Below are positions 198 to 752 of a DNA stretch of 5,127 bases, one piece after another. The DNA comes from a virus (Duplodnaviria; Heunggongvirae; Uroviricota; Caudoviricetes): positions 1 through 5,127 of IMG/VR virus record IMGVR_UViG_2648501318_000002. One strand, written 5' to 3'. Under the pieces are notes generated by a model. The model made no database searches, was not told where the DNA came from, and saw only the letters and a list, made by a program, of their open reading frames with translations. How positions within the stretch are numbered: position 1 is the first letter of the stretch; every line of letters starts with the position of its first letter. Made by a program: the position numbers and the translations under genes.

Positions 198-537
198 AAT
201 TGCCAGCACCCACGTTGTAAACGAATGAGTAAAGAGCGCCGCGCGTTGTTTCCGGTATATCGACTTCGATGTACGGGTTAATTTGTCTGGCGACAGTGGC
301 AAGGTCTTTATTCAAGAGTGCTTTGCATTCTGCTTTGGTATACGTTTTACCGAGCATGATGTCTTTTCCTGTATGCCCGTGACATACAGTCCATACACCA
401 ACAATATCTTTGTATGGTATGTAGCTGACACCTTCCAGACCATCGTTACCACTTGGGCCAGTGATTAACACTGATGCTATAGCAATTGCTCCGCCACCAA
501 TAGCAGCAGCAACGGCTTTTCGTAATGATGGAGGCAT
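148..537 (-). pseudogene. rrrD: Phage 21-type SAR endolysin (T4-lysozyme-like muramidase), C-terminally truncated by IS2; only 198..537 is phage-derived
   Basis: 129-aa ORF with a Gly/Ala-rich N-terminal signal-anchor-release segment ([18 protein letters not shown]) and E35, D44, T50 in the lysozyme catalytic positions. Residues 1-113 are endolysin-like; the last 16 residues ([16 protein letters not shown]) and the stop are read from IS2 sequence. Intact homologues are about 165 aa (recalled). Confidence 0.8.
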
Positions 538-752
538 TATTCACCTCTCGCAGCCTTGCGCTTATCTTCTTTAATCTTGAAATAAAGGTTTGTCAGGTAC
601 GTCAGCAGGCCAAATACCAGGCTACCCAGCACACCTATTGCTGCCCACTGTGAGGGCGTGACTTTATCGAGCAGCTGTAAAAACCAGTAACCGGCACTAC
701 CTGCTGAGGTGCCATAGGCGACACCCGTTGTTAACTTATCCATGGATTTCAT
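537..752 (-). CDS. essD: Class II holin (pinholin), S21 family, with dual-start motif
   Basis: 71-aa [74 protein letters not shown] with two hydrophobic segments and a charged C-terminus. MKSM provides Met1/Met4 alternative starts. GAGGTGG Shine-Dalgarno lies about 6 nt upstream; the stop overlaps the endolysin ATG (TAATG). Confidence 0.85.

Follow-up and report, generated by a model that had tools for sequence, protein, structure and literature searches.

The holin gene and its surroundings

The DNA analysed here (5,127 bases; hereafter, the window) is 100% identical to positions 4,024,130–4,029,256, reverse strand, of the genome of E. coli CV839-06 (NZ_CP025753.1), a strain from a diarrhoeic piglet in China. 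The whole pinholin frame in the ORF list, essD (S), occupies 537..752 on the minus strand. Read from Met1 (ATG, 752..750), it encodes the 71-residue S71 antiholin form; read from Met4 (ATG, 743..741), which is seen directly in the N-terminus MKSMDK, it would give the 68-residue S68 pinholin form (537..743, minus strand). The Shine–Dalgarno region (754..763, minus strand) comprises GAGGT (763..759) for Met1 and GGGGT (758..754) for Met4. Phage 434 has the same upstream sequence, with the ribosome-binding sites of S71 and S68 annotated at these positions, and two products of the S71/S68 type are annotated in both phage 434 and phage 21. RNA folding around the dual start was in none of the three sequences examined (window, phage 21, and PK8566) more stable than in shuffled controls (z = +0.71, −0.56, and −0.69, respectively).

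The product of 537..752 matched the Pfam family PF04971 (Phage_holin_2_1, 'Bacteriophage P21 holin S') over profile positions 1–63 of 64 (E = 2e-35; 121 bits, against a cut-off of 26), as well as PHROG holin families. Residues 7–28 form an uncharged stretch of SAR-like composition (55% Gly/Ala/Ser/Thr; mean hydropathy 0.70), and residues 31–58 form a second one (mean hydropathy 1.15), followed by a C-terminal tail with a net charge of +3. Two transmembrane segments are accordingly predicted, the first being weakly hydrophobic and SAR-like. The dual-start motif Met1-Lys2-x-Met4 is present, with residues 1–6 the same as in S21, and MKSM is predicted to yield both antiholin and holin. The holin stop codon TAA (539..537) shares one base with the endolysin start ATG (537..535), as TAATG at 539..535. 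The gene thus stands directly upstream of rrrD, which retains an intact N-terminal SAR domain but is truncated, and quuD lies upstream. From these features, we assign the product of 537..752 as an S21-type pinholin, that is, a class II holin. An earlier note had described an intact, dual-start pinholin of this type with both transmembrane segments, a good Shine–Dalgarno sequence, and an overlap with the endolysin start, and that description agrees with our analysis throughout.

The protein shares all 71 residues with EssD of the K-12 prophage DLP12 (WP_000839596.1) and is 100% identical to S of the plaque-forming phages 434 and mEp460 and of other cultured lambdoid phages; 41 phage records were at least 99% identical to it. 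Compared with S21 of phage 21, 61 of the 71 residues were identical and all ten differences were conservative.

The prophage around the window is lambdoid, ~49.5 kb long and nearly full-length, and is integrated next to icd, with an integrase at one end and a partial icd duplicate at the other. It contains int/xis, exo/bet/gam, an immunity region, O/P-type replication genes, and a nin region, as well as Q, a porin gene, the lysis cassette, iss, terminase, and head and tail genes. Within the window, the Q antiterminator gene quuD lies at 2597..2980 on the minus strand (PF06530, E = 4e-53; also annotated by PGAP). The Q product is required for transcription of the late operon, which includes the holin. 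Between Q and the holin sits an intact gene for an OmpC/NmpC(Lc)-type porin of 360 residues (1326..2408, plus strand; PF00267, E = 3e-153), antisense to the late transcript. A pattern scan detected a terminator-like hairpin with a T-run at 876..897 (minus strand), ~125 nt upstream of the holin start on the late-transcript strand; it may help to hold the holin silent unless a Q-modified polymerase reads through. Just beyond the porin stop codon, a long GC-rich inverted repeat (2421..2460) was recognized by eye, and it could serve as a terminator of the porin mRNA and, on the opposite strand, of the unmodified pR' transcript. No minus-strand late promoter stood out in a promoter scan downstream of Q, so the pR'/tR' assignment is a putative one. 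A permissive Rfam scan of the whole window gave no match at E ≤ 0.1.

The opposite end of the window holds the end of an IS1 element (4881..5127, minus strand; PF03400), a second recent insertion in this prophage. This IS1 is missing from the relatives ETEC1731 and ETEC1747 and is therefore specific to CV839-06 within this comparison. It cuts a hypothetical gene (a 378-bp CDS in ETEC1747, WP_000182282.1) to a 49-residue ORF at 4735..4884 (plus strand).

Interruption of rrrD by IS2

The endolysin ORF (148..537, minus strand) encodes 129 residues, of which residues 1–113 are native and the last 16 are read from IS2. The native part, codons 1–113 of rrrD (199..537, minus strand), is identical or nearly identical to the RrrD/R21 structures PDB 4ZPU and 3HDE (E ~1e-72). 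It keeps the two hallmarks of a SAR endolysin, namely the N-terminal SAR domain and the catalytic Glu/Asp/Thr triad (E35, D44, and T50). Its match to PF00959 (Phage_lysozyme) covers only profile positions 3–83 of 125, so the lysozyme domain is incomplete. Intact rrrD alleles encode 165 residues, and the ORF in the window diverges from them at residue 114, the C-terminal 52 residues of RrrD having been split off by IS2. As approximately one-third of the lysozyme fold is missing, the fragment is very probably inactive. In the source genome, PGAP labels rrrD as a pseudogene ('missing C-terminus'). The truncation of the SAR endolysin partner, which the earlier note had pointed out, is thus borne out, and its cause can be named.

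The foreign tail of the ORF (148..198, minus strand; 16 residues and a stop codon in the ORF list) follows one copy of the 5-bp target-site duplication AATTG (198..202), which was located by comparing the junction with the intact rrrD of ETEC1747. The left end of IS2 (1..197, minus strand) bears the terminal repeat TAGACTGGCCCCC and the orfA start (ATG, 105..103) before running off the window, and its sequence recurs in thousands of IS2 copies. Between the rrrD halves, the source genome carries a 1331-bp element that has the ends TGGATTTGCCCC...GGGGGCCAGTCTA and the AATTG duplication and that PGAP annotates as an IS3 family transposase with a programmed frameshift. Size, ends, 5-bp duplication, and transposase annotation all fit, and the insert is IS2 (IS3 family). 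Directly beyond it lie the missing 162 bp of the rrrD 3' end and then an intact rzpD.

Of 5,426 complete E. coli genomes, only CV839-06 and ETEC1731 (Belgium) contained the exact IS2–rrrD junction at 100% identity, and ETEC1731 lacks the IS1. IS2 occupies the same rrrD site, codon 113/114 with an AATTG duplication, in at least three contexts. These are CV839-06 and ETEC1731 (junction at 197/198 of the window); PK8566 (1771/3100 of the segment analysed), where an IS2 copy of 95.6% identity (59 differences) sits in another prophage, beside trkG; and strain 400660 (segment 1209/2539), where IS2 lies in the opposite orientation. Judged by these junctions, IS2 hit this one site independently in at least two lineages and probably in a third, and AATTG at codon 113/114 of rrrD looks like an IS2 target hot spot. 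Such a target preference would explain recurrent breaks of the endolysin gene without selection on the holin. Further genomes carry IS2 elsewhere in or near rrrD or rzpD.

Age of the break and selection on the holin

The prophage is also present in ETEC1747, isolated from a pig in Belgium, but with neither IS2 nor IS1; RrrD of this strain is full-length (165 residues), and its essD is nucleotide-identical to that of the window. When IS elements are excluded, the CV839-06 and ETEC1747 prophages differ by one mismatch and two indels in 20,708 aligned bases. From this divergence, ~0.03 changes are expected in the 216-bp holin gene since IS2 inserted. The break is so recent that an intact holin is the null expectation and carries no signal of selection.

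The CV839-06 prophage has been damaged by IS2 in rrrD, by IS1 in the hypothetical gene, and by a nonsense codon each in the tape-measure gene and in J. Four lesions in ~49.5 kb leave any 216-bp gene with a chance of only ~2% of being hit. The tape-measure gene (segment coordinates 1631..4210) has its nonsense codon at position 487, a single G-to-T change relative to ETEC1747, and that of gpJ (segment coordinates 6612..10025), at codon 728, is common to CV839-06 and ETEC1747. To judge from these codons, the prophage was already tail-defective before or alongside the IS2 hit, and with lesions in both J and the tape-measure gene, infectious particles would not be expected anyway. The earlier note was right to call the prophage a decaying one; we would describe it as young and defective, with decay that is early, scattered, and apparently random. 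Its further suggestion, that retention of a toxic holin hints at selection for another role, does not follow from this locus: three changes in 20.7 kb relative to the IS2-free sibling and the small size of the gene account for the intact holin, and the target-site preference of IS2 suffices for the broken endolysin. In general, an intact gene beside a broken one is uninformative about selection unless the break is old.

At the level of the protein family, the picture is one of constraint. The window essD differs from the phage 434 gene by three synonymous and no nonsynonymous changes and from the allele of the rrrD::gpJ deletion lineage described below by seven synonymous and no nonsynonymous changes; against the PK8566 allele, dN/dS was ~0.06. 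Read from these alleles, strong purifying selection acts family-wide, viable phages included.

The earlier note had also proposed comparing the conservation of holin and endolysin across strains. In coverage counts that take the best place per genome, essD was matched in 4,274 genomes and was partial in 16 (0.4%), and rrrD was matched in 3,945 and was partial in 156 (4.0%). The holin is therefore the less often broken of the two in these crude counts, and the ~10-fold excess of partial rrrD is larger than the 2.3-fold ratio of rrrD to essD length; a general bias towards keeping the holin would be compatible with them. Three things confound the excess, however: only the best place per genome was reported, rrrD forms mosaic joints with other endolysin modules, and one deletion was inherited by 79 genomes. 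The cases are not independent events, and for these reasons we do not take the excess as evidence of selection.

The inherited deletion accounts for about half of the partial rrrD cases (79 of 156), which have one rrrD(1–198)::gpJ junction in common. In strain A3 (segment 3216..3414 onward), rrrD codons 1–66 (198 bp) are fused to gpJ, and Q, the porin gene, and an intact essD are left. The 79 complete genomes with this junction come from varied hosts and represent natural orphan-pinholin strains. essD is annotated in all 60 listed records of these genomes, and the EssD protein was identical to that of the window in each of the three sequences checked. Among the three sequences compared, neither essD nor the dead rrrD remnant showed any difference, and such a comparison has no power to detect selection after the break. 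Some other partial rrrD matches are not breaks but mosaic joints to a module with a 177-residue lysozyme. This different lysozyme is the partner of the identical EssD protein in KE26 (segment 3001..4439) and of a close EssD variant in WCHEC050613; in both, two small genes (YdfR/DUF1327 and a hypothetical gene) stand between holin and endolysin. Such pairings indicate that holin and endolysin modules have been exchanged independently of each other.

We consider it highly probable that this lambdoid prophage at icd has an ordinary S–R lysis cassette, in which rrrD was split very recently by IS2 and the holin is intact by chance. This reading is built on the gene identities, on the IS2 junction with its duplication, and on the near-identity to the uninterrupted sibling prophage, all of which were observed here. 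That the break is an assembly artefact and the cassette really intact can be given almost no weight: IS elements are common sites of misassembly, but the identical junction, the 5-bp duplication, and the full 1331-bp IS2 recur in the complete assemblies of CV839-06 and ETEC1731, which are independent of each other and come from different countries (China and Belgium, respectively). A cassette that is still lytic, because another prophage of CV839-06 supplies a SAR endolysin and a spanin in trans (for example, through cross-activation of a second Q-dependent late operon), would place the holin under phage-type selection. Up to eight essD/rrrD-like places occur per E. coli genome, and the Q encoded here is of the common quuD type that is also present in DLP12-like elements. 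Nevertheless, since J and the tape-measure gene each carry a nonsense codon, phage-type selection on lysis was probably lost already, and we regard trans supply as unlikely.

Less likely still is that the holin has been kept by selection after co-option for a host function that does not involve the endolysin, such as modulation of outer membrane vesicles (OMVs) or cell-wall turnover, biofilm formation, or an altruistic kill switch. Another role for the identical K-12 EssD has been discussed before and put to a genetic test: it was proposed that the entire SRRz/Rz1 module of DLP12 has been domesticated for cell-wall maintenance and OMV formation, and among single and double DLP12 deletions, the mutant that retained the holin but had neither endolysin nor spanin produced 2.4-fold more vesicles (PMC7918800). 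That phenotype of a holin-only genotype is in favour of co-option, as are the 79-genome rrrD::gpJ lineage with its retained essD, the lower frequency of partial essD than of partial rrrD in the crude counts, and the seven synonymous against no nonsynonymous differences between the window and the deletion lineage. However, decay has had no time to act in the CV839-06 prophage, the three deletion-lineage sequences have no power, and the 7:0 ratio reflects purifying selection across the family, including active phage life, since the same protein occurs in viable phages. Moreover, the published model of domestication was framed for the complete SRRz operon and not for a holin left on its own. Nor is the locus itself a domesticated module of the DLP12 type, its rrrD being interrupted and the element young and nearly full-length. 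A broader version, in which the recurrent IS2 site and the rrrD::gpJ deletion repeatedly yield holin-only cassettes that are favoured as a route of prophage domestication, appears a shade less probable again; if it were true, holin-only cassettes could act, for instance, as kill switches that prevent phage release without lysing the cell, or could modulate vesiculation. The chance survival of the holin beside a recent IS2 insertion thus remains our preferred reading.

Probable mode of action and comparison with known lysis systems

For S21, it has been reported that both products insert with two transmembrane domains (TMDs) and that Lys2 of the 71-residue form slows the exit of TMD1 from the bilayer, which makes this form the antiholin; once TMD1 of S21-68 has left, TMD2 forms heptameric pinholes of ~2 nm that collapse the proton-motive force (PMC9636201). 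Such pinholes do not release a cytoplasmic endolysin, and the collapse normally frees and activates a tethered SAR endolysin (PMC9636201).

We infer a corresponding course for the window. The holin would be transcribed only within the Q-dependent late operon and would be silent in the lysogen; upon induction, a transcript from the Q side would have to cross the porin gene in antisense and pass the hairpin (897..876). Translation from Met1 would give the 71-residue antiholin, whose extra Lys2 delays the exit of TMD1, and translation from Met4 the 68-residue pinholin. After TMD1 has left the bilayer, TMD2 would oligomerise, presumably into small, heptameric, depolarising holes, and the proton-motive force would collapse. 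With an endolysin that lacks its C-terminal 52 residues, induction would be expected to kill by depolarisation without normal lysis. The same outcome, depolarisation without efficient lysis, had been put forward in the earlier note, and it is a sound inference from the published biology of pinholins and SAR endolysins (PMC9636201). The holin would have stayed intact because the IS2 break is very recent, leaving almost no time since the hit, and because the gene is a small target; selection is unnecessary to explain it.

Both genes and the idea of another role are already known: the holin is a textbook protein, and the broken endolysin is an already annotated IS2 pseudogene, a few mutational steps from its intact sibling. 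By-products of the analysis are the recurrent IS2 site in rrrD and a set of approximately 80 genomes with an orphaned pinholin, both of which could be used for tests of holin-only phenotypes.

Among characterised systems, K-12 DLP12 shares with the window the gene order Q, porin (antisense), essD, rrrD, and rzpD. Its lysis module is essD-rrrD(ybcS)-rzpD/rzoD, and its essD with the upstream intergenic region is 98.6% identical to the window at the DNA level. The damage is the reverse of that seen here, as DLP12 has an intact rrrD and a porin gene disrupted by IS5, whereas the window has an intact porin gene and an rrrD split by IS2. The two elements also differ in state: DLP12 is an old remnant at argU, whereas the CV839-06 prophage is nearly full-length and lies at icd. 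Phage 434 resembles the window in its layout (Q, porin, S, R, Rz/Rz1, and iss), as well as in its holin protein and ribosome-binding region; in the sequenced 434 isolate, the homologous porin gene is, as in DLP12, disrupted by IS5. Unlike the CV839-06 prophage, phage 434 is viable and has an intact endolysin of 165 residues.

Phage 21, with S21-68 and S21-71, has a holin of the same length, the same MKSMDK start, two TMDs, a charged C-terminal tail, and the same overlap of the holin stop with the start of R; its R21 (PDB 3HDE/3HDF) is nearly identical to residues 1–113 of the window endolysin. It differs from the window in the ten conservative holin substitutions, in having tRNA genes rather than a porin gene between Q and S, and in its R, which is truncated in the window. 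Between the window holin and that of phage 21 (segment 1367..2079), synonymous sites are saturated (38.5/49.8), whereas the intact endolysin of ETEC1747 differs from phage 21 R by only two residues. A saturated holin beside a nearly identical endolysin indicates mosaic recombination, with the joint at the S/R boundary or close to it. Lambda S (S105/S107) has in common with the window a dual start, an extra N-terminal positive charge that marks the antiholin, and Q-dependent late expression (PMC9636201). It is, however, a class I holin with three TMDs that opens micron-scale holes and releases a cytoplasmic endolysin, whereas the holin of the window belongs to the class II pinholin family.
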